Shown: positions 7,017 through 59,596, counted from the first letter of the stretch. The stretch is DNA of 64,000 nt from Escherichia coli (GCF_044324875.1 NZ_CP172185.1); one strand, 5' to 3'. Numbers and translations are program-made. The notes: generated from the sequence alone by a model not told the origin.

Positions 7017-9044
7017 TTAGCCAAATCTGACCTTGCAGAACATAATTAATTTGCGGTAATAGCGTATGACTCGCCCCGCTTTTTTTCGGGTAATAAACAT
7101 CGGCTTGCGCGGCGTCTTGATTAAATATTCCGCAGCTTCTTCTACCGTAATAGGTTGTAGCCGTGTTGGGTGGATATAGGTTGGATAAACAATCAACGCC
7201 TGATAGATCAAATCTGCTAACGTTAATTTTTGCTCGCGGCGCGGGCAGTGATGTTCATCAACGGTTAAACCCCAACCGGCATAGAAGGGCAGGCCGTAAC
7301 AATGTACGTGCTTGCCATGTAATAACGCTTCAAACCCGGACAATGATGTCATGGTGTGCACTTCATCTGCGCGCTGAATGCATTGAATAATATCGGCGTC
7401 CAGTGCCTGATAATCAGCGAGTTCAGCAGTCAGTTCTGCCGGAATATCGCCCTTGCGATTCCCCACCAGTACATCCGGGTGCGGTTTATAAACAATGTAG
7501 GCGTGCGGATTGCGCTCGCGTACTGTGCGTAATAACTCAAGGTTGCTCTTAATCGAGACAGTGCCTGTTTTAATAGAGGCATCGTCCTCTACCTGACCCG
7601 GCACCAGGATAACTTTTTTATCTTTGGCTTCGGCTGGTAGAGAGAAATCGGCTCCCAGGTTGTACTTACTCAGTTTGCTTTCAACCAGTCGCTGGCGTAA
7701 TTTTTCAGCTCGCATCTGCTGCGCCAGCGTTAACTGGCTGTGATTAAGCAGGACTTCCAGGTCGCTGGGGCGCGTGGCGTCATAGTAGATCCCGCGTTTA
7801 TCCAGTACCAACGATAGCGGCGGCAGCAGGTCAGAGCCAAGTCCGGATGAACGCAGAAAACCATCTTCCATTCGCCATAACGGCAGTGATTTTTGTTGCG
7901 CTTCGGCTAGCCATTGCTGTTCTCCCTTTACACCCCATACCACGCAAGCCGTCGCCGCAGTACAACGGCGTGAATAACTCAGTCTGTTTGTTGCGGTACG
8001 CAAGAAAGGTTTCAGGATTGCCGACTTCCACAGCGTTAAGCCTGGCGACCATAAATAGCCATTACGCTGTTGCTGATGGTTGCGCTGTAATTGCAGCCAT
8101 TGCAGTACGGTAAACAGATCGCTTGCGGCCCCCGTGAGCGGGTCGATATAGCGACAGTAACGCAGGTATGCAGCGGCAAAAAGTTCTTCCAGCGTGGCAG
8201 AACCGCGTCGGGCAGATAACAAAGCGGACTGCGGATGGCGATCGTCGGTTAAGCCCCAGCCTGCATACCAGGGCTGGCCGAAACATGTTACTGGTTTTCC
8301 TGCCAGCAAGGCTTCAAAGCCGTATTGGGATGTCACGACGTAAACCCGGGAAACGTGTCGCAACAGCGACTGCGGGCTGACATTCTCGGCAATCAAACGT
8401 ACTCGTTGCGTGGCGCGCAGATCAGCGAAATAACCTGTTTTCTTTCCTTCCAGGACATCCGGATGCACCTTCACCCAAATTTCGGCTTGAGGATTTTCCG
8501 CCATCGCGGCTTCCAGCATGGCAGCAAACTCATGCGGGCCAGCATTGCCATACGTCACTGACATATCATTAAATGTCTGATCGACAACCAGAACGATGTC
8601 TGAACGTTCTGACTCATCAGCCACAAACGCAGGTGCTAGGTTATATTTCGACAAATCCCCGGTCACGATGGTGTGCATCGCTTCTCTGGCCAGGCTTATC
8701 AGAGCTGTATTTCCGGCTTTATCCTGTACCAGTTTCTCCAGTGCTGAAGGCTTGCTGGCATCGTAGTAAATGCCACAATCATCCACCACCAGAGAAAGCG
8801 GCGGCTCGCCATTGACGCCAAGATCCAGCGAACGCACAAATCCATCTTCCAGACGAATGACGGGTTTTCCCGCTGCTTTGGCGATGGCGACTGGTTTCGC
8901 CGCGCTGGGACGATGTCCCCACACGGCGATAGCATCAACTTCTTGCGGAACAGGGCGCAGCAGAGAAAGTTTCTGGCACGGTTGCGCCAGAAATTTCTCC
9001 AGATGCGGAATACGCCAGATGCCAGGCGAGTAAATGCCAATCAT
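7017..9044 (-). CDS. kpsC: KpsC, capsule biosynthesis dual-module beta-Kdo transferase
   Basis: 675-aa ORF with two repeated modules ([14 protein letters not shown] / [14 protein letters not shown]); 4-bp overlap with kpsU. Confidence 0.92.
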
Positions 9045-50455: not shown

Positions 50456-51535
50456 TTACTGCATCATGACCTCACGAACGAAATCTTTTTTGAGCTGTGT
50501 ACTGTACGCTTTGCCATAAAACTCCACCGTGGGCTCCGGGATCTCATTCAGATCCGGACGGAGCTGTTTGTTCATCGGCGTGGAGCCGAAGACTTTACTC
50601 AGTGCATGTTGCGTTTCAGGCTGAATCAGCCAGTTGAGGAATAAGCGTGATGCCGCCGGATGTGGGCTGTTGGCGGCAATGGCAGCGATGTTACCGCCGC
50701 CAGGCATGCCAAACTCCGGTACGTAAAATTTCAGCCGCGAATTGATAGCCCCGGTTTTTTGTAGTCCGACAAGATGATCTTCCCAGGATGGTGTCAGCAT
50801 CAGCTCGCCGTCATTCAGGCGTGTCAGACTATCAGCACCGGAGGCCGTGCGGGTAATTTTGTCCTTATTAGCGGCAAACCACTGCCAGCCTTTCTGCCAG
50901 TTTTTCACCACTGCCGGGTCAACGCTCTCCGCTTCGCTGTTAAACGTGTCGCCCTGAGTAGTGACGATGCGCTGGATAAAGGCTTCCCCAGCGCCGCCGT
51001 TGTTCGGGTCGTTATAGCCGAACTTTTTCGGGTTGGCGTCGATAAAGCTCTGCAACTGCTCCAGCGTTTGTGGCAGCGCCCGGTCACCCATCTGCTGCGG
51101 GTCGTAAGCAAATCCGGTCTGGTTGCCCCAGAACGCCACGGCATAACCCTGGGTGTCAACGTTCTGAATCTGGTGAATGGCGTCGCCATAGCCCGGCAAA
51201 TCGTCCACCTTCGCCAGCGCTTTCGCTCCCATTGCCACTGGCAGTTGCGCAACAGACAAGGCGATAACATCTATTTTACCTTTTTTTTTCCCCGCTTCTG
51301 CCAGCAACTTGTTCACGTTTCCGTCGATATTCCCTTCCGGGATGCGCACCTTAACACCGTACTGCTGCTCAAAATCCTTCACAAAGCTGCGCCACTGCGG
51401 CTGTAAGTACCAGACGTTAAAGGTCACGCTGCCCTCTTTTTTCGCTTGGGCAATCAGGTCGGGGCTATCCGCCGCCGTTGCCAGCGAGCTGCACAGCAGG
51501 CCGCCCGCCAGAATCATCACTGTTTTTTTCATCAC
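50456..51535 (-). CDS. ABC transporter periplasmic substrate-binding protein
   Basis: 359-aa ORF with signal peptide; last gene of a four-gene ABC operon. Confidence 0.8.
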   Translation of the reverse strand: MMKKTVMILAGGLLCSSLATAADSPDLIAQAKKEGSVTFNVWYLQPQWRSFVKDFEQQYGVKVRIPEGNIDGNVNKLLAEAGKKKGKIDVIALSVAQLPVAMGAKALAKVDDLPGYGDAIHQIQNVDTQGYAVAFWGNQTGFAYDPQQMGDRALPQTLEQLQSFIDANPKKFGYNDPNNGGAGEAFIQRIVTTQGDTFNSEAESVDPAVVKNWQKGWQWFAANKDKITRTASGADSLTRLNDGELMLTPSWEDHLVGLQKTGAINSRLKFYVPEFGMPGGGNIAAIAANSPHPAASRLFLNWLIQPETQHALSKVFGSTPMNKQLRPDLNEIPEPTVEFYGKAYSTQLKKDFVREVMMQ

Positions 51536-51553
51536 ATTATCTCCTGTAAAAGG

Positions 51554-52390
51554 TCAGGCTTTTCCCGTGGATTGCGACAGATAGTTCCCCTTCAGCAACT
51601 TCTCAATGATGACCATCAGGATGACATTGGGGATCACCAGAATCATCGACACCACCGCCGCATCCGGGCGGACGAAGGAGTAGCCAAGGAAAGAGTAAAG
51701 AATGGTCGGAACGGTGATAAAGTCCGGCGCGCCCAGCACGTATGAGATGCTGAACTCTTCCAGGCTTCGCACCAGACAAAAAATCAGCGCCGCCAGGAAG
51801 CTCGGTTTCAGCAGCGGCAGATAGGCATTGCAGAAGGTGTCCCACGCGCCGGAGCCCAGGTCGCGGCTGGCGTCGATCAGATCCTGCGGCACCGACTTAA
51901 ACCCCGCAGACATAATGCGGATCGAATAGGGCAGCGTCAGTACCGTATGGCCGATAACAATGCTGATAAACGCGTTGTCGATATTGAGGTTGATCAGCAT
52001 GGCGCTGAAAAAAATCCCGATCAGCATCCCCGGCATCACCAGCGGGATCAGCGTCAGCATCTCCGCCACCGCCTTACCGCGAAAGGTCATGCGCCCGAAG
52101 GCATACGCGGTGGGTAGCGACAGCAGCAGGCTGGCGACCGCTACCGCAGGCGCAATGGTGTAGCTGTTGAACAGCGCCTCGGAAAGCGAAGTCTTTTCCC
52201 ATACCAGCAGCCAGCGGCTGAACGACAGCACGGGCGGGAAGATATCCGGGTAGCTCCACGGATGGGCCGGGTCAACCAGCGACCAGAGGATCGCCATGCC
52301 GAACGGCATGCCCAGCCAGATCAGATTAGCGACCACGAAGAAGATCAGCGAAATCGTCACCACCCGGCAACCGTTGGCAGTGTGGCTCAT
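51554..52390 (-). CDS. ABC transporter permease (second); start set at the downstream ATG
   Basis: the ORF-track start 52438 would add 16 residues (MSHTDYPVRHPQRRGQ) encoded by one copy of a 48-bp tandem duplication. Confidence 0.75.
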   Translation of the reverse strand: MSHTANGCRVVTISLIFFVVANLIWLGMPFGMAILWSLVDPAHPWSYPDIFPPVLSFSRWLLVWEKTSLSEALFNSYTIAPAVAVASLLLSLPTAYAFGRMTFRGKAVAEMLTLIPLVMPGMLIGIFFSAMLINLNIDNAFISIVIGHTVLTLPYSIRIMSAGFKSVPQDLIDASRDLGSGAWDTFCNAYLPLLKPSFLAALIFCLVRSLEEFSISYVLGAPDFITVPTILYSFLGYSFVRPDAAVVSMILVIPNVILMVIIEKLLKGNYLSQSTGKA

Positions 52391-52476
52391 TTGACCTCTC
52401 CTTTGCGGGTGGCGAACGGGGTAATCAGTGTGGCTCATTTGACCTCTCCTTTGCGGGTGGCGAACGGGGTAATCAG
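52381..52476. repeat. perfect 2 x 48-bp tandem duplication spanning the permease1 stop / permease2 start junction
   Basis: TGTGGCTCATTTGACCTCTCCTTTGCGGGTGGCGAACGGGGTAATCAG occurs twice back to back; contains RBS, ATGA stop/start overlap and first codons. Confidence 0.9.
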
Positions 52477-53301
52477 TGTGGCAATCAGCAACGTGCAGAT
52501 GGCCGCCGTGACCATAATGATCACCGCAATCACCGCCGCGTTATTCCACTCGCCGTACTCCATGGCGGTGGCCTGCATCAGCCGCGCCAGCGAGTAGGTG
52601 TTGCGTGGCCCGGCCACCGAGAAGAAGGCGAAGTCGCCCAGCGCGCCGATAAATACCAGAATCAGCGTCACCTGCACGGCGGGCAGCGTCAGCGGCACCA
52701 CCACGCCGGTAAAACTGCGCCAGCGGCTGGCACCGAGATTGCTGGCGGCGTCCAGCACGTCGTTACGGATGGCGTTGACTGCGCCGCCGACGAGGATCAG
52801 GGCGAAGGGCAGGTTTTTCCAGATTTGCAGGATAACCACGCCCCAGCCGAAGTCATCGTTCTGCATCCGCAGCGGCTCGCTGATAATCCCCAGCGCCAGC
52901 AGCAGTTCGTTGATAATGCCGTGATAAGCGACGATATTGACGAACAGAAACGCCGCCACCAGACCGGGGATAAACATCGGCGCACGCAGCACCGCGATAA
53001 TGCCCTCTTTATAGGCCATCGGTTTACGCAGCCACAGCGCCAGCGGATAGGCGAAAATCACCGAGCCGAACGACCCCAGCAGTGACACTTTCACTGAGTA
53101 GAACAGGGCGCTTTGCAACACTTCGTCCTGCAACATATTGCGCCAGTATTCCAGCGAGAAATTGCTGTCGCCTTCGATGTTGAACCAGCCCAGGCTCTGG
53201 ACGATCACCACATAAAACGTCGATCCCATCAGTAGTAGGATCGTGCCCAGCCCGCTGAGCATCAGCAGCCAGGCGACCGCATCATTGCGCCAGTTTTTCA
53301 T
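52435..53301 (-). CDS. ABC transporter permease (first)
   Basis: 288-aa polytopic ORF with permease EAA-like loop region. Confidence 0.85.
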   Translation of the reverse strand: MKNWRNDAVAWLLMLSGLGTILLLMGSTFYVVIVQSLGWFNIEGDSNFSLEYWRNMLQDEVLQSALFYSVKVSLLGSFGSVIFAYPLALWLRKPMAYKEGIIAVLRAPMFIPGLVAAFLFVNIVAYHGIINELLLALGIISEPLRMQNDDFGWGVVILQIWKNLPFALILVGGAVNAIRNDVLDAASNLGASRWRSFTGVVVPLTLPAVQVTLILVFIGALGDFAFFSVAGPRNTYSLARLMQATAMEYGEWNNAAVIAVIIMVTAAICTLLIATLITPFATRKGEVK

Positions 53302-54365
53302 GATACCGGCTCCAGAAAATGGATGGCGTTTTCCGCCAGACGGAAGCAGGCACTCTCGCCGGGGGCGACGGGCGGCTTTTTAATTAGATGTAAGCGGACC
53401 GATAACCCGCTGTCGTTGTGGCCCCAGGCTTCGGTGAGGTTGCCCATAAAGGCCATTTTGTCGAGCGTCAGGGAGAAGTGGTTGTTGCCTGCCTGAGGCT
53501 GGCTGACATACTGCGCATCTTCCGGTCGCCAGCAGATATAGCAGTGCTCTGTGCGTGGCGGCTGTACGGAATGCACATAAAACTCGCCGAGGGCACAGCG
53601 TACCCGGTAATAGCCCGGCTGCTCTGAGGGCGTGACCTGCGCGGTGTCGATATTGGCCGCGCCGATAAAGTCGGCCACAAAGCGGTTGGCCGGACGGTAG
53701 TAAATCTCTTCCGGTTTGCCTATTTGCTCAACATTACCGGCGTTCAGCACCACAATTTTATCCGACATCGCCAGCGCTTCCGCCTGGTCGTGTGTGACGT
53801 AGATCGAGGTGAGCTGATACTGCCGCTGGAGTTCCTTGATTTCAAAACGCACGCTTTCGCGCAGCTTGGCATCAAGGTTGGAGAGCGGTTCGTCGAACAG
53901 GATCACGTCCGGGCGGGTGATCATCGCCCGCGCCAGCGCCACGCGCTGCTGCTGGCCGCCGGAGAGCTGGGCGGGCATTTTCAGGCGCTGGCTCTCCAGC
54001 CCCACCTGCTTCAGCGCCTCCGCCAGCCGGGCCTGCTGTTCACTGATAGCGACTTTTTTCTGCTTCAGGCCGAAGCAGATGTTGTGTGCCACGTTGAGGT
54101 GCGGAAACAGCGCATAGGACTGGAAACACATGGCGGTATTGCGCTTTTCTGGCGGCAGGGCGTTGACCGTTTTATCGCCAATCAGAATGCGTCCGCTGTC
54201 CGGCTGGTGAAAACCGCCGATCATTTTCAGCAGGGTGGTTTTACCGCAGCCGCTCGGCCCAAGCAGGGTCACGAACTCCCCCTCTTCGGCGCAGAACGAG
54301 ATTTCCCTGGCGGCATAGAATTCGCCGAAGGTTTTGGTCACCTGTTCCAGAACCAGTTTTGACAT
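53298..54365 (-). CDS. ABC transporter ATP-binding protein (PotA/MalK-like)
   Basis: Walker [10 protein letters not shown], signature [14 protein letters not shown], Walker [12 protein letters not shown]. Confidence 0.9.
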
Positions 54366-54580
54366 GAGTCTCTCTTCTATCGGTTAAAAAGATGATTATT
54401 AAATTTACATACTAAACATTAAATTTATGTGACACAGATCCTTAAAGCTAAAAAATGATCTAAATATCAAATTAAAAGCATATAAAACAATGGATTAACC
54501 ATAAAATAACAAAAACATCTTTCACATTTAAATTTAAGTAGTAAAGTTAATTACCATCTTACATTCGAGAGGAAAAGAAG

Positions 54581-55411
54581 ATGGCGTTTAACTTTCACCG
54601 GGCGGCAGAGGGGATCGTGCTGGCCAACAGCCACCGAGGTTATTCCAGCTGCGCGCCGGAGAACACATTCCCGGCCTTTGAAGCCGCCCGCCTGGCGGGA
54701 ACCCACTGTATTGAAATCGATATCCACCTGACGGCGGATAACCAACTGGTGGTCACGCACGATCACCGTATCGACCGGGTATCCACCGGACACGGATTTG
54801 TGGAGCAGATGACGTACCCGCAGCTGCTGGCGTGCGACTTTGGCGTGAAATACCATCCGTCGTTTGCCGGAACGCGCATCCCCTTGCTGGCGGACGTGCT
54901 GCGCTGGGCGGTGGAAAACAGCATGGGGCTGATTGTTGAGGTCAAACAGCGCAACCGCCATGACGAGTTTGTGGCGGCGCTGGTCGCACTGCTGCATGAG
55001 CATCTGGATGCCCTCGGCCATATCCAGTTGCTGGGCTTCAACCATGTGCTGATCAACCGGGTGAAGGCGCAAATCCCGCAACTGGCGTTACAGGTGGTGA
55101 CGCTGGAGCGCTACAATAACCAGCTTGCGGCGGTACAGCAGTCCAATGCCGGATGCGTCTGCTTTGAGTTCGAGTTCGCCCATATCGACGACCTGCGGGC
55201 CTACAAAAATGCCGGACTGGGCGTGCGGATGTATCTGCATGAAATGAAAAACGGCATGACGCCGCTGGAGCAGTACGACTATAAATTCGGCTGTGACAGT
55301 CGTCCGGTGATTATCGGCTGGATGCAGGCGGGGCTGATTGATATGCTCAGCCACGATGATATTCCGTATTTGCAGGGACTGATTGAAGAAGCAGGCCTGC
55401 GCTGGAACTAG
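54581..55411 (+). CDS. glycerophosphodiester phosphodiesterase-family protein
   Basis: 276-aa ORF with HRG...ENT..AF...EIDIHLT motifs. Confidence 0.8.
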   Translation: MAFNFHRAAEGIVLANSHRGYSSCAPENTFPAFEAARLAGTHCIEIDIHLTADNQLVVTHDHRIDRVSTGHGFVEQMTYPQLLACDFGVKYHPSFAGTRIPLLADVLRWAVENSMGLIVEVKQRNRHDEFVAALVALLHEHLDALGHIQLLGFNHVLINRVKAQIPQLALQVVTLERYNNQLAAVQQSNAGCVCFEFEFAHIDDLRAYKNAGLGVRMYLHEMKNGMTPLEQYDYKFGCDSRPVIIGWMQAGLIDMLSHDDIPYLQGLIEEAGLRWN

Positions 55412-55426
55412 AAAAATAAGGACACC

Positions 55427-56539
55427 ATGAACGCCCACTCTGAACGCCTTGAACTACGTGGTTCGCAGCGCCTGCTGCTGGAACTGATCCGTCTCCACGC
55501 CCCGGTGACGCGGGCTGAACTGGCACGGCTGTCGGGACTGACGGCGGGGGCGATCACCCAACAGTGCCGAGAGCTGATGTTCTCCGGCCTGGTGGTGGAA
55601 GGGGAGCGCAATACCGGGCAGCGCGGCCAGCCGTCGCTGCCGTTGCGCCTTAACCCCGGCGGCGGTTGTGCTATCGGGTTGTCGTTCAGTCCCGGTTTTA
55701 TCGATATGACGGTGGTCGATCTCAGTGGTCGCCAGCTGCTGTCGCTTTGCGAAGCACATCAGGAGAATCAGCCACTGGAGGCCTCTCTCGCGCAGATCAA
55801 AACCTTGGTGGAGAAAATGCTGAAAAAGCGCCAGCTCCAGCACGCACGTATTCTCGGCATTGGCTATGCAGTGCCCGGATTTCTGAAAGCGGATGGTCGC
55901 AAGCGCCACAGCGTACCGTGGCTGGAGAGCTGGCGTGAGGTAGATCTCCAGCAGGCGTTTGCCGACAACCTGCCGTGGCCGACGTGGGTGGAAAATAATG
56001 CCAACGCCTCGGCGGTAGGTGAACTGTACAGCGGCAAATGGAATGCGTACAGCGATCTAACCTTTATCGACCTTGGCTACGGTATCGGCGCGGGTATTAT
56101 CTCCGGGAATAAAATGCTACGCGGCGGGTTCTGCAATGCCGGTGAAGTCGGGATGGCGTTTCCATCCGGTACACCGCGCCCGTCGTATAAGGATTTGCTT
56201 GCCACACTGGAGCGTGAAGGATTCAGTGAAACTAAGCTACCGGAGCTGATAGCCGGGCAGCACCCACTGCTGGAAAGCTGGTTTGAACGCTGTCGTGGCC
56301 AGGTGGAGCAGACGCTCTTCAGCTGTGTGCAGTGGGTAGACCCGCAAATCATCGTACTCGGTGGCGCGATGCCGAAACCGATTATCAGTCGTCTGGTGCA
56401 GGAACTGAATCAACTGATGGAAGCCTGCCTCGATCCCAACCGCCCCAGAGTGAAGTTAGCTGCCTCTTCGATGGGAGCACAGAGTGCGTCATGCGGCGCG
56501 GCGATGCTCCCGTTGTATAAGGTGATTAATAATGGATAA
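55427..56539 (+). CDS. ROK-family (NagC/Mlc-like) transcriptional regulator
   Basis: 370-aa ORF with N-terminal HTH and ROK sugar-kinase-like fold motifs. Confidence 0.8.
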   Translation: MNAHSERLELRGSQRLLLELIRLHAPVTRAELARLSGLTAGAITQQCRELMFSGLVVEGERNTGQRGQPSLPLRLNPGGGCAIGLSFSPGFIDMTVVDLSGRQLLSLCEAHQENQPLEASLAQIKTLVEKMLKKRQLQHARILGIGYAVPGFLKADGRKRHSVPWLESWREVDLQQAFADNLPWPTWVENNANASAVGELYSGKWNAYSDLTFIDLGYGIGAGIISGNKMLRGGFCNAGEVGMAFPSGTPRPSYKDLLATLEREGFSETKLPELIAGQHPLLESWFERCRGQVEQTLFSCVQWVDPQIIVLGGAMPKPIISRLVQELNQLMEACLDPNRPRVKLAASSMGAQSASCGAAMLPLYKVINNG

Positions 56540-58036
56540 GAAGTTATGTGATTGTTGCTTCTGAAAGTGATATTTTATGTTGTTAAAATGTAAAGTAATA
56601 ATACAATGAGCTATCCATGATGGGGTTCTGTAAATAAACAAAACACTCTCTTCAATTCTGCTCACCTTCGGTATTTGTGTATCATCACTGGCTACTGATA
56701 AAAACAGAACCGTCAGTTTTCCACGATGTGAAGGGCAGGAATCATCGGCTGTTGCAGCCAGCGTCAAACGGGACTATCTCCAGAAACAGGTGCTTCACTG
56801 GAAAGATGACTAGGTGATCTTCAGTCAGCAGCATCCTGTTGTCTGGGTGAATCTTCGTGAGCTGGTAAGTAAAGGTGATAATTTAGTCACAGTGCATCTC
56901 ACCGCCCGGGGGAAGAAAGCCGATATTCAGTATCGGGTGCGCATTGACTGTAAGAACGAAAACGCTATCTGGCAGCGCCAGAGATGAACGTATGGAGATA
57001 ATCACAGAGTATGAACAAACGGACTCTACATGTTCATTATGACTAAAAAACGCTGTTTTATTTTACGTTGCTGTCATAACGTGTTTATCTCAATTTTCGG
57101 GAACATGTTCTTAGCGGTTAGACTGGCCCCCTGAATCTCCTGCGTTTGAAGGACAGTAACAGGTTAAGTGATAACAGATGTATGAAAATATAGAGATACA
57201 TCCAAGGAAGAGCCACTTTTGCGCCGTTCGTGACAGTTTTGTCATGTCCTTGCTCCGGCCTGGTTTATGTTCATAAGTCCTTCTTCACCAGTATCTTTGT
57301 AAACCTTCACCCAGTGCCAGATAATGGTTTCATTTGATATATTAAACTGTGTAGTGGCCTAGCGCATGGTAAGTTCTTCACTCAAACCTTCAGGACAACT
57401 GTCAGTCGAAACTCAGGAGAGCCGCGGTCATTTTGCCATGTAATACCATCAATACCGTGGAGTTGCCAGCCCTTGACCCAGCATCGCTCTGATGTTTCTT
57501 CAACACCAAAACGTTCAGCGGTACGACGTGTACCATCGTGTCCGGCAATATAATGATTAACTACAGCTTATTCGGTTTAGAGAAAATATTTTGGCTTTGC
57601 CATAAAAACTAACCTTAATCAGTTGGATGTCCAACTTTTGGAGGGAGAGTCCAACGATGGTACAGGATTTATTCATGTTAATTTTTCACAAACTCCTTTA
57701 TTCGTGTGATGTTAATCACAAAATACCAAAGAGAACGTTGAAAAAATAATGATACATTGTAAAAGATATATTAATTAATTTTTCATAATTTTATTATATA
57801 TGCTGCATGTCAATTATTTATATACCAAAAACCGAACAAAAATATTTATTATAGGTATTATGAAATAACCTTTCCATATTGTTTATTTTAATGCAATCAG
57901 CACAGATTACTTCAAAAATATAATTAGATGCATGAAAAGGGAGAAACAATATATTTTATTGTTTAAGATATTTTGTTCAACATGTATGCTGAGAGATAAA
58001 CTTATCGATACTTAAAAAATCCGAAAAGGAGGAATA

Positions 58037-59596
58037 ATGATAACAAAAAGAGAAAGACGTTTCCTGAGAACAGTAGAATGGCTTGGCAATGCACTTCCTC
58101 ATCCCGTCATCCTGTTCATAATATTAACAATTTCCTTAATTGTAGTTTCGATGATTGGACAATATTTTAATATTAGCGCCCCAGACCCAAGACCACCTGG
58201 AGCTAAAGGCCGGAATGATGATGGTATTATTTATATTGTAAGTTTACTGGATGCAGATGGAGTTCGTAAAATTCTTTCGAATCTGGTTACTAATTTTACG
58301 GGATTTGCACCACTGGGCACTGTTCTGGTTTCTCTTCTTGGTGTTGGTATTGCAGAACGGTCCGGGTTAATTTCAGCAACCCTTCGTCTTATTGTGACAA
58401 AAGCCCCTGCAAAAGTAACAACTATAGCTGTTGTCTTTGCCGGTATCATGTCCAACATGGCTTCAGAACTTGGCTATGTCGTTTTAATACCACTTTCGGC
58501 AATACTTTTTCATTCTCTGGGAAGACATCCCTTGGCCGGGCTTGCTGCTGCTTTTGCGGGAGTCTCGGGTGGCTATTCAGCAAATTTAGTATTAGGTACA
58601 ATCGATCCGCTCTTGTCAGGAATCACCCAGCAAGCAGCGCAAATTGTATCATCTGATTATATTGTAGGGGCTGAATCCAACTGGTATTTTATGTTTGTCA
58701 GTACATTTTTTATAACACTCATGGGGTACCTGATAACAGAAAAAATAGTTGAACCACAGTTAGGGAAATACAAGGGTGGAGGGTTCAATCAGGATGAACA
58801 GTCAATTCGTAATTCATCTGATGTTACAGCAGTTGAGAAAAAAGCGTTAATGCTGTCCTTTTTATCTGTACTTCTACTATCTGTTATTGTTGCCATTCTG
58901 GTTATTCCTGAAGATGGAATCTTACGTAATCAACAAACAGGATTAATCAGCAATTCTCCATTTCTTAAATCAATAGTGGCTTTCATTTTCATATTCTTTT
59001 CATTAGCTGGTGTAGTATATGGATATACAGCGGGAACAATAAAAAATAGCAAAGATATTGTTGATGCCATGACTCATTCAATGAGTACATTAGGACTTTA
59101 TCTGGTCATTATATTTTTTGCCTCTCAGTTTGTAGCTTTGTTTAGCTGGACAAATATTGGTCAGGTTATTGCGGTTAAAGGCGGGAGTTTTCTGAATAGT
59201 CTTGATTTGCCAGATTCCGTAATATTTATTGGATTTATATTGATTTGTGCTGTCATTAATTTAATGATTGGGTCCGCATCTGCTCAATGGGCAGTAACAG
59301 CACCAATTTTTGTTCCTATGTTAATGATGGCAGGATATGCCCCTGAAGTAATACAGGCTGCTTATAGAATTGGAGATTCAGTAACAAACATTATTACTCC
59401 AATGATGAGTTATTTTGGGCTTGTTATGGCTATTGTACTTAAATACAAAAAGGATGCCGGTGTTGGGACTTTGATATCAATGATGCTTCCATACTCCATA
59501 GTTTTCCTCGTCGGGTGGTCTGTATTCTTTGTTATATGGGTCTTTGTACTGAACTTACCCGTTGGCCCCGGGGCATCGACCTATTATCTCCCATAA
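58037..59596 (+). CDS. AbgT-family transporter
   Basis: 519-aa AT-rich polytopic ORF; N-terminus RFLRTVEWLGNALPHPVILFIIL typical of AbgT family. Confidence 0.85.
   Translation: MITKRERRFLRTVEWLGNALPHPVILFIILTISLIVVSMIGQYFNISAPDPRPPGAKGRNDDGIIYIVSLLDADGVRKILSNLVTNFTGFAPLGTVLVSLLGVGIAERSGLISATLRLIVTKAPAKVTTIAVVFAGIMSNMASELGYVVLIPLSAILFHSLGRHPLAGLAAAFAGVSGGYSANLVLGTIDPLLSGITQQAAQIVSSDYIVGAESNWYFMFVSTFFITLMGYLITEKIVEPQLGKYKGGGFNQDEQSIRNSSDVTAVEKKALMLSFLSVLLLSVIVAILVIPEDGILRNQQTGLISNSPFLKSIVAFIFIFFSLAGVVYGYTAGTIKNSKDIVDAMTHSMSTLGLYLVIIFFASQFVALFSWTNIGQVIAVKGGSFLNSLDLPDSVIFIGFILICAVINLMIGSASAQWAVTAPIFVPMLMMAGYAPEVIQAAYRIGDSVTNIITPMMSYFGLVMAIVLKYKKDAGVGTLISMMLPYSIVFLVGWSVFFVIWVFVLNLPVGPGASTYYLP

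Follow-up and report, generated by a model that had tools for sequence, protein, structure and literature searches.

A Pot-type ABC importer linked to phosphodiesterases and a ROK-family regulator on a mosaic island of Escherichia coli

This work concerns a six-gene locus at positions 50456-56539 of a 64,000-nucleotide stretch of Escherichia coli DNA (GCF_044324875.1, NZ_CP172185.1; hereafter the window), in which an ATP-binding cassette (ABC) importer is encoded divergently from a glycerophosphodiester phosphodiesterase (GDPD)-family enzyme and a ROK-family regulator. On balance, we think it probable that the locus provides substrate-inducible uptake and cleavage of an organic phosphodiester, by periplasmic capture, ATP-driven import, GDPD hydrolysis and ROK repression of both divergent units. 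In the scheme that we infer, transport would be inward: the periplasmic binding protein would capture the phosphodiester, the PotB/PotC-type permeases and the ATPase would import it, and the cytoplasmic GDPD would split the diester; the products, a phosphomonoester (in the simplest case glycerol 3-phosphate) and an alcohol, would enter central metabolism. The ROK protein, bound at TAAATTTAAT boxes, would repress both transcription units until either the imported compound or a cleavage product released it. The locus is a known kind of system built from an unstudied transporter subfamily.

Linkage of the transporter to phosphodiesterases

All six open reading frames (ORFs) are intact and all six proteins score above the Pfam gathering threshold; RefSeq annotates the same six genes, under generic names, in E. 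coli strain 135, whose DNA is identical here. Four genes lie on the minus strand with 4-bp overlaps or 18-bp spacing, in the order A-B-C-D (ATPase, permease, permease, binding protein) that is also the order of potABCD. They encode the ATPase (53298-54365; 355 aa with a C-terminal extension; ABC_tran, 125 bits, E = 4e-36), the PotB-like permease 1 (52435-53301; 288 aa), the PotC-like permease 2 (51554-52438; 294 aa) and the binding protein (50456-51535; 359 aa with a Sec signal peptide; SBP_bac_8, 110 bits, E = 2e-31). The two permeases match BPD_transp_1 with 50 and 53 bits. With a secreted binding protein, two such permeases and an ATPase in one operon, this is a type I binding-protein-dependent ABC importer. 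On the plus strand, the GDPD gene (54581-55411; 276 aa; GDPD, 95 bits, E = 7.5e-27) starts 215 bp from the ATPase start, across an AT-rich divergent control region (54366-54580; 215 bp, 24% GC), and the ROK gene (55427-56539; 370 aa; ROK, 86 bits, E = 4e-24, plus HTH_24) begins 15 bp after it. A preliminary description of the window had placed the same genes at the same positions, and had read them as an accessory phosphodiester or sugar uptake module with its own repressor and a substrate that was unknown. The gene assignments stand in full, and the wider proposal gains support from the comparisons that follow. Taken alone, the window would plausibly be described as holding a generically annotated nutrient-uptake operon.

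The arrangement is found again, with proteins 47-99% identical, in Salmonella, Buttiauxella, Serratia, Yersinia, Providencia, Proteus, Pantoea, Vibrio, Photobacterium and Pasteurellaceae. Because the genes on either side differ between these groups, the arrangement is more than an accident of position. The binding protein has 423 relatives (E <= 1e-5; clusters at 90% identity), which span Enterobacterales, Vibrionaceae, Pasteurellaceae, Rhizobiales, Rhodobacterales, Rhodospirillales, one Acidimicrobiales metagenome-assembled genome and spirochaetes, and it yields 75 loci among species-representative genomes. ORFs were called in all loci and clustered, recurrent clusters were annotated, and tblastn searches were added; unless stated otherwise, the counts below refer to the 61 well-flanked loci of other species. 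Few families besides the transporter recur across orders. A phosphodiesterase, either a GDPD or a 2H enzyme of the DUF1868 family, is encoded within 6 kb of the binding-protein gene at 49 loci, and a ROK regulator is adjacent at 46. A GDPD like that of the window, divergent from the ATPase, is present at 33 loci (including three of DUF4996 type), and GDPDs with a DUF4996 tail, from two further subfamilies, are present at six, in alpha-proteobacteria and a spirochaete (three found by tblastn only). The DUF1868 2H phosphodiesterase is a neighbour at 19 loci, and in alpha-proteobacteria and Acidimicrobiales its gene directly follows that of the binding protein. The linked GDPDs therefore fall into three subfamilies, in gamma- and alpha-proteobacteria and a spirochaete, and the 2H family is non-homologous to GDPD. 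The 12 loci with neither enzyme are ten from Pasteurellaceae and two outgroup loci (binding proteins 33% identical), and the latter pair encode a PHP phosphoesterase, a GFO/IDH/MocA oxidoreductase and a xylose-isomerase-like TIM-barrel protein instead. The best evidence at hand for a phosphodiester cargo is that non-homologous phosphodiesterases have been recruited independently to a single transporter.

The remaining neighbours bear on the other half of the molecule. An inositol-monophosphatase (IMPase)-family gene follows the phosphodiesterase at 5-6 loci, and a phosphogluco/phosphomannomutase (PGM/PMM) gene is found at seven, all of them in Vibrio. Together with the ROK regulator and the outgroup oxidoreductase, these suggest that the alcohol part is a sugar or cyclitol, and we think it probable that whatever is joined to the phosphate is of that kind. 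Our best guess at the substrate is glycerophosphoinositol or a related glycerophospho-sugar or glycerophospho-polyol. Inositol and glycerol catabolism genes were sought in the alpha-proteobacterial flanks, and nothing consistent was found there beyond the IMPase and, at four loci, an aldehyde dehydrogenase, so the pathway context does not support the glycerophosphoinositol guess.

The window GDPD keeps the residues expected for catalysis. Its PF03009 score of 95 bits compares with a cutoff of 23.6, and alignment to 2pz0 and 2otd retains H18-R19, E27-N28-T29, E45/D47, H60-D61 and E120/K122, such that the HRG, ENT, E-x-D, HD and E-x-K catalytic and metal-binding motifs are all intact. The sequence has no signal peptide, and the protein is predicted to be an active cytoplasmic phosphodiesterase. 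We considered whether it might be an orthologue of UgpQ and rejected this, as the equivalog model NF006989 gives 107 bits against a cutoff of 264.

Several features of related loci deserve mention in their own right. DUF1868 (PF08975; structure 2FSQ, Atu0111) is tied to the transporter in 22 loci from four phyla or classes (for example L062, 11158-11877; L064, 11150-11866; L013, 4249-4953; L004, 2636-3310), often directly after the binding-protein gene and ahead of the IMPase-family gene; our literature search found no paper on this family. Loci of the Vibrio coralliilyticus/mediterranei group (L004, L052-L055, L065 and L078) encode the 2H enzyme, then PGM/PMM, the ABC transporter, ROK, a 533-aa protein without a Pfam match and a GT1 glycosyltransferase, an architecture kept in seven loci which hints at a hexose-phosphate product or at a different downstream pathway served by the same transporter. 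In Providencia and Proteus (L005/L006, 825-2816; L012; L056), a second GDPD-domain protein of about 640-660 aa with a signal-peptide-like N-terminus is encoded just past the ROK gene and may be a secreted enzyme that makes the transporter's substrate. Finally, in Yersinia pestis NCTC5923 (L011) the ATPase ORF is shortened (7380-8285, where relatives have about 7200-8285), and about 1.1 kb rather than about 0.2 kb separates the GDPD and ATPase genes, which suggests an insertion or pseudogenisation of this copy.

The transporter subfamily and its relation to known systems

Among NCBIfam models (E <= 0.01), the binding protein matches only YnjB-like (61 bits against a cutoff of 203), PhnS (34 bits against 310) and YdcS, all far under cutoff, and no UgpB, PotD or PotF model; its Pfam matches are to generic solute-binding protein families. 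Searches of the PDB with the single sequence and with a 22-sequence profile returned remote matches only, the best being the uncharacterised Clostridium protein 4edp (E = 1e-8), with the mannopine binder MotA and HitA among the weak ones, and for this reason no ligand can be transferred from the solved structures. An AF2 model (pLDDT 86.9) compared with the PDB by Foldseek showed 13-19% identity to binders of ferric iron, polyamines, glucose 6-phosphate (G6P), 2-aminoethylphosphonate, pyridoxal phosphate and oligosaccharides alike, and so the fold search does not discriminate among ligand classes. Three specific identities were tried and rejected. An orthologue of UgpB (CUT1-type, about 47 kDa) is disfavoured by the lack of any UgpB match and by the length of 359 aa, and a PotD/PotF polyamine binder by the lack of an equivalog match and by the 13-14% identity to PotD structures, a value shared with PhnS structures. 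A ferric binder of the FbpA/HitA type is disfavoured because the Tyr-Tyr ligands are replaced by D253-H254: in a HMMER alignment, D253-H254-L aligns with the YWY segment of Pseudomonas aeruginosa HitA, which presumably holds the iron-ligand tyrosines known from FbpA. In a manual and approximate alignment to a PotD sequence, the W255 and D257 positions of PotD are apparently not conserved, although this comparison is weak. The preliminary description had held that confident clustering of the binding protein with polyamine or iron binders would tell against its proposal; the uniformly low identities, the remote best match and the exchanged tyrosine pair give no such clustering. To judge from these comparisons, the protein founds a distinct, uncharacterised subfamily of the iron/polyamine/phosphonate structural class.

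Within that subfamily, W42, R49, D89, W136-G-N, D235-S236, R239, E244, W251, D253-H254 and F275-G-M are conserved in 71 homologues, D253-H254 invariantly. The candidate ligand-contact residues are kept from E. coli to alpha-proteobacteria, Acidimicrobiales and a spirochaete, and are altered only in the outgroup. Their conservation whatever the partner enzyme implies a single type of ligand.

The membrane and ATPase components are of Pot/Phn type by their profile matches, at superfamily level only, with every equivalog cutoff missed. The best NCBIfam matches are PotC for permease 2 (81.5 bits) and PotB for permease 1 (79.8 bits), with PhnU/V also among the best. MalG reaches only 27-32 bits and UgpA/UgpE fall outside the top 25 matches, and the permeases were accordingly rejected as UgpA/UgpE orthologues (CUT1-type, MalF/MalG-like). 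The ATPase scores near-equally against PhnT2 (361 bits), UgpC (334 bits) and PotA (329 bits), each time under the cutoff.

These assignments qualify the term 'Ugp-like' that the preliminary description had used, which is apt for the logic of the system but not for its ancestry. As in Ugp/UgpQ of E. coli, which serves sn-glycerol-3-phosphate and glycerophosphodiesters, a binding-protein-dependent ABC importer is encoded beside a cytoplasmic GDPD, which here would cleave the imported diester, and the ATPase resembles UgpC. Unlike Ugp/UgpQ, the binding protein has no UgpB match, the permeases are PotB/PotC-like rather than CUT1-type, and the GDPD is not the UgpQ equivalog and is encoded divergently with a dedicated ROK regulator. 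PotABCD and PhnSTUV share with the locus their gene order, the permease matches to PotB/PotC/PhnU/V, the ATPase match to PhnT2 and the fold class of the binding protein; they differ in that every window component lies far under their cutoffs and that the neighbours are phosphodiesterases and ROK rather than polyamine or phosphonate genes. In its logic, the locus can also be likened to the Agrobacterium acc system for agrocinopine uptake, which combines a sugar-phosphodiester ABC importer with a dedicated repressor and the cytoplasmic GDPD-family AccF, the enzyme that cleaves the imported compound; there, however, the binding protein AccA is of oligopeptide type and the repressor AccR of DeoR type.

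There is a precedent for phosphorylated cargo, since the same structural class includes binders of phosphorylated sugars and organophosphates, such as AfuA (PMC4546632). AfuABC is a hexose- and heptose-phosphate importer that was formerly annotated as an iron transporter, and AfuA, of the 'ferric' fold class, contacts the sugar through a His-Asp pair and the phosphate through Ser/Thr (PMC4546632). Like the locus studied here, it serves accessory nutrient uptake in enteric pathogens, and by description the invariant Asp253-His254 at the FbpA tyrosine position can be set beside the AfuA His-Asp pair. Unlike it, AfuB is a single fused permease, no phosphodiesterase or ROK gene is associated, and similarity is so low that AfuA did not appear in the PDB sequence searches with the window binding protein. 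GpxB of marine bacteria belongs to a glycerol 1-phosphate/glycerol 3-phosphate (G1P/G3P) organophosphate ABC importer outside the Ugp family (PMC12718374), but it is of the PhnD-type phosphonate family (TC 3.A.1.9), binds monoesters and is unrelated to the window binding protein. Neither system is closely enough related for its function to be transferred, yet recent work on both illustrates that the list of organophosphate importers other than Ugp continues to grow (PMC4546632; PMC12718374). Our literature search, which included the combinations of GDPD, ROK and ABC and of 2H and ABC as well as glycerophosphoinositol uptake, found no paper on the transporter family.

The regulator and the divergent control region

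The regulator consists of an N-terminal winged helix-turn-helix (HTH_24) and a ROK domain. Its NCBIfam matches to Mlc (74 bits) and NagC (70 bits) are both far under cutoff, and its nearest solved relative is the uncharacterised 7rhe, which matches over the full length. The window protein, like 53 of 53 family members, lacks the zinc motif CxCGxxGC, which places this ROK protein in an atypical clade, and the sequence reads AGEVGM at the place where AGExGH is expected.

Palindromic TAAATTTAAT boxes lie in the control region at 54398-54407, 54418-54427, 54527-54538 and 54542-54551, the first two being 20 bp apart and toward the ABC promoter side and the other two toward the GDPD gene. Blocks centred on TAAATTTAAT are conserved across 10 Enterobacterales loci while the rest of the AT-rich intergenic sequence has diverged. 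Across 36 intergenic regions there are 75 matches to the motif, compared with 15.6 +/- 4.5 in shuffled sequence (about five-fold enrichment), and five of the 15 matches in the whole window fall within the 215-bp control region. The boxes are probable ROK operators on this evidence, and the ROK protein would bind the control region and repress from it. The Vibrio loci are without the motif and their ROK proteins are only about 32% identical, a pattern that fits co-evolution of regulator and operator. A consensus promoter scan gave 6 sites against 4.1 +/- 1.7 in shuffled sequence, and we claim no promoter. Inspection of the intergenic region by eye, without scoring, revealed no convincing Pho box, the only partial likeness being TGTCACA.

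The cargo and the setting of the locus

A number of observations weigh against uptake of a phosphodiester. E. coli already has Ugp/UgpQ and GlpT/GlpQ, such that the added benefit of a further system is not obvious, and known ROK effectors are sugars and sugar phosphates, so that the regulator alone is no pointer to a glycerophosphodiester. With its many invariant tryptophan and acidic residues, the binding protein would also be suited to a head group that bears an amine, or to a plain sugar. At the ten Pasteurellaceae loci, the transporter stands without an adjacent phosphodiesterase or ROK gene, and the pairing of the transporter in the Vibrio group with PGM/PMM, a glycosyltransferase and the 533-aa protein is a poor fit to glycerophosphoinositol. 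Our literature search found no experiment on any member of the transporter family.

Alternatively, the cargo might be a sugar or polyol phosphomonoester, or a cyclic phosphate, taken up much as AfuABC takes up hexose 6-phosphates, with the GDPD or 2H enzyme opening the cyclic phosphate or acting on a side substrate. Cyclic phosphates are the classical substrates of 2H enzymes, genes for DUF1868 2H proteins are found with the transporter in 19-22 loci, and the IMPase and PGM neighbours act on monophosphates; AfuA-like G6P binders are also among the structural neighbours of the binding protein (PMC4546632). We nevertheless consider such a cargo unlikely, because the window locus and 32 others have a GDPD only, an enzyme known for its activity on acyclic diesters, and because only 6 loci combine a GDPD with a 2H enzyme. 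It is similarly improbable, in our estimation, that the cargo is non-phosphorylated (a sugar, a polyol, an opine-like conjugate or an amine) and that the GDPD is linked to the transporter for another purpose such as internal phosphodiester turnover. This would accommodate a type of regulator typical of sugar regulons, a Pot/opine-type permease family that carries polyamines and opines, the weak match to MotA, sugar binders that are structurally as near as any other class, and the Pasteurellaceae loci that have no phosphodiesterase at all. What it leaves unexplained is the presence beside the transporter, each independently and in distant phyla, of three GDPD subfamilies, the 2H family and, in the outgroup, a PHP phosphoesterase.

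The automatic names 'PotD' and 'spermidine/putrescine' that some sources give to homologues would make the system an importer of polyamines, 2-aminoethylphosphonate or ferric iron. The potABCD gene order and the weak PhnS and HitA matches point the same way, but we regard this as very improbable: all equivalog models are missed by wide margins, the iron-binding tyrosine pair is replaced by D253-H254, and among the annotated neighbours we recognised no phnW/phnX-type phosphonate-catabolism genes and no recurring polyamine or iron genes. Uptake and cleavage of an organic phosphodiester is the reading that we carry forward.

Of 5426 complete E. coli genomes, 20 carry the locus; all copies are chromosomal, and most are in strains isolated from chickens. 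The plasmid collection contained no copy, and only the adjoining sodC is plasmid-borne. Its GC content of 53-60% contrasts with 38-44% in the flanks, and its surroundings are a mosaic of insertion sequence (IS) elements, a second sodC, an AbgT transporter and a serine-protease autotransporter of the SPATE group, with ter genes in strain 135. The locus is rare, horizontally acquired and situated on a mosaic island. The carriers differ at one point within the operon, a perfect tandem duplication of 48 bp (2.2 copies at 52378-52482; TRF, 100% matches) that covers both the stop of permease 1 and the start of permease 2 and provides two in-frame starts for permease 2. The upstream start, at 52438, is overlapped by the permease 1 stop by 4 bp, and the other, at 52390, is that taken by RefSeq; the result is either a 16-aa N-terminal extension of permease 2 or the loss of the 4-bp translational overlap. 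A full match of 6401 bp was obtained in three of the 20 carriers, the other 17 matching in two pieces with subject spans 47-48 bp shorter, and the duplication thus appears to be present in only those three.

On the island itself, the extra Cu/Zn superoxide dismutase gene sodC (49836-50360, minus strand; NF007628, 218 bits) is immediately downstream of the binding-protein gene, and its 3' end and spacer (236 bp within the query) are 100% identical to sequence at sodC on poultry-associated plasmids of E. coli and Escherichia albertii. An IS3-family element with overlapping orfA and orfB (47357-48630, minus strand; 136 and 301 aa) lies between a TRAP-transporter DctM gene (45917-47218) and the segment with sodC and the ABC genes; strain 135 has different genes upstream of sodC, and the IS3/DctM junction is therefore strain-specific. 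On the other side, the RefSeq annotation of strain 135 shows a YebF-family pseudogene with an internal stop just after the ROK gene (about 56688-56987 in the window, plus strand) and, between this and the SPATE gene, an intact AbgT-family transporter gene (58037-59596, plus strand). The SPATE gene (59908-63732, plus strand) encodes an S6-family serine-protease autotransporter of 1274 aa, whose N-terminus resembles Tsh/Hbp. Copies at least 99% identical occur in 24 E. coli records, and 329 of the 408 places matched by more distant relatives (80-95% identity) are on plasmids. Our literature search found no paper on this island segment.

Organic phosphodiesters, including deacylated phospholipids, fragments of teichoic acids and capsules, and plant and algal metabolites, are abundant sources of carbon and phosphorus in guts and oceans. 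To our knowledge, Ugp is the only well-studied bacterial importer of such compounds, and the locus described here draws attention to a second, unrelated transporter family that is recurrently associated with phosphodiesterases and a regulator of sugar type. Linkage to such a regulator rather than, apparently, to the phosphate-starvation regulon implies that a specific nutrient is used, and not that phosphate is scavenged in general. In E. coli, the locus is an uncommon accessory trait of poultry-associated strains, carried on a virulence-type island with a SPATE protease, sodC and tellurite resistance, and it may be a niche-fitness factor. The linkage to phosphodiesterases across phyla and the orphan DUF1868 make the question of the substrate cleanly testable, and identification of the ligand would assign functions to both DUF1868 and the zinc-less ROK clade. 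More tentatively, and as a possibility that we would not call likely, the transporters may form an unrecognised and widespread Pot-type importer family, represented in E. coli by this locus, for sugar- and cyclitol-phosphodiesters (glycerophosphoinositol, head-group fragments of lipids and teichoic acids, cyclic phosphates), served by interchangeable non-homologous phosphodiesterases and by a zinc-less ROK clade that senses the product. If true, this would provide the first function for DUF1868 (2FSQ) and add a new route by which gut, host-associated and marine bacteria obtain phosphodiester nutrients.

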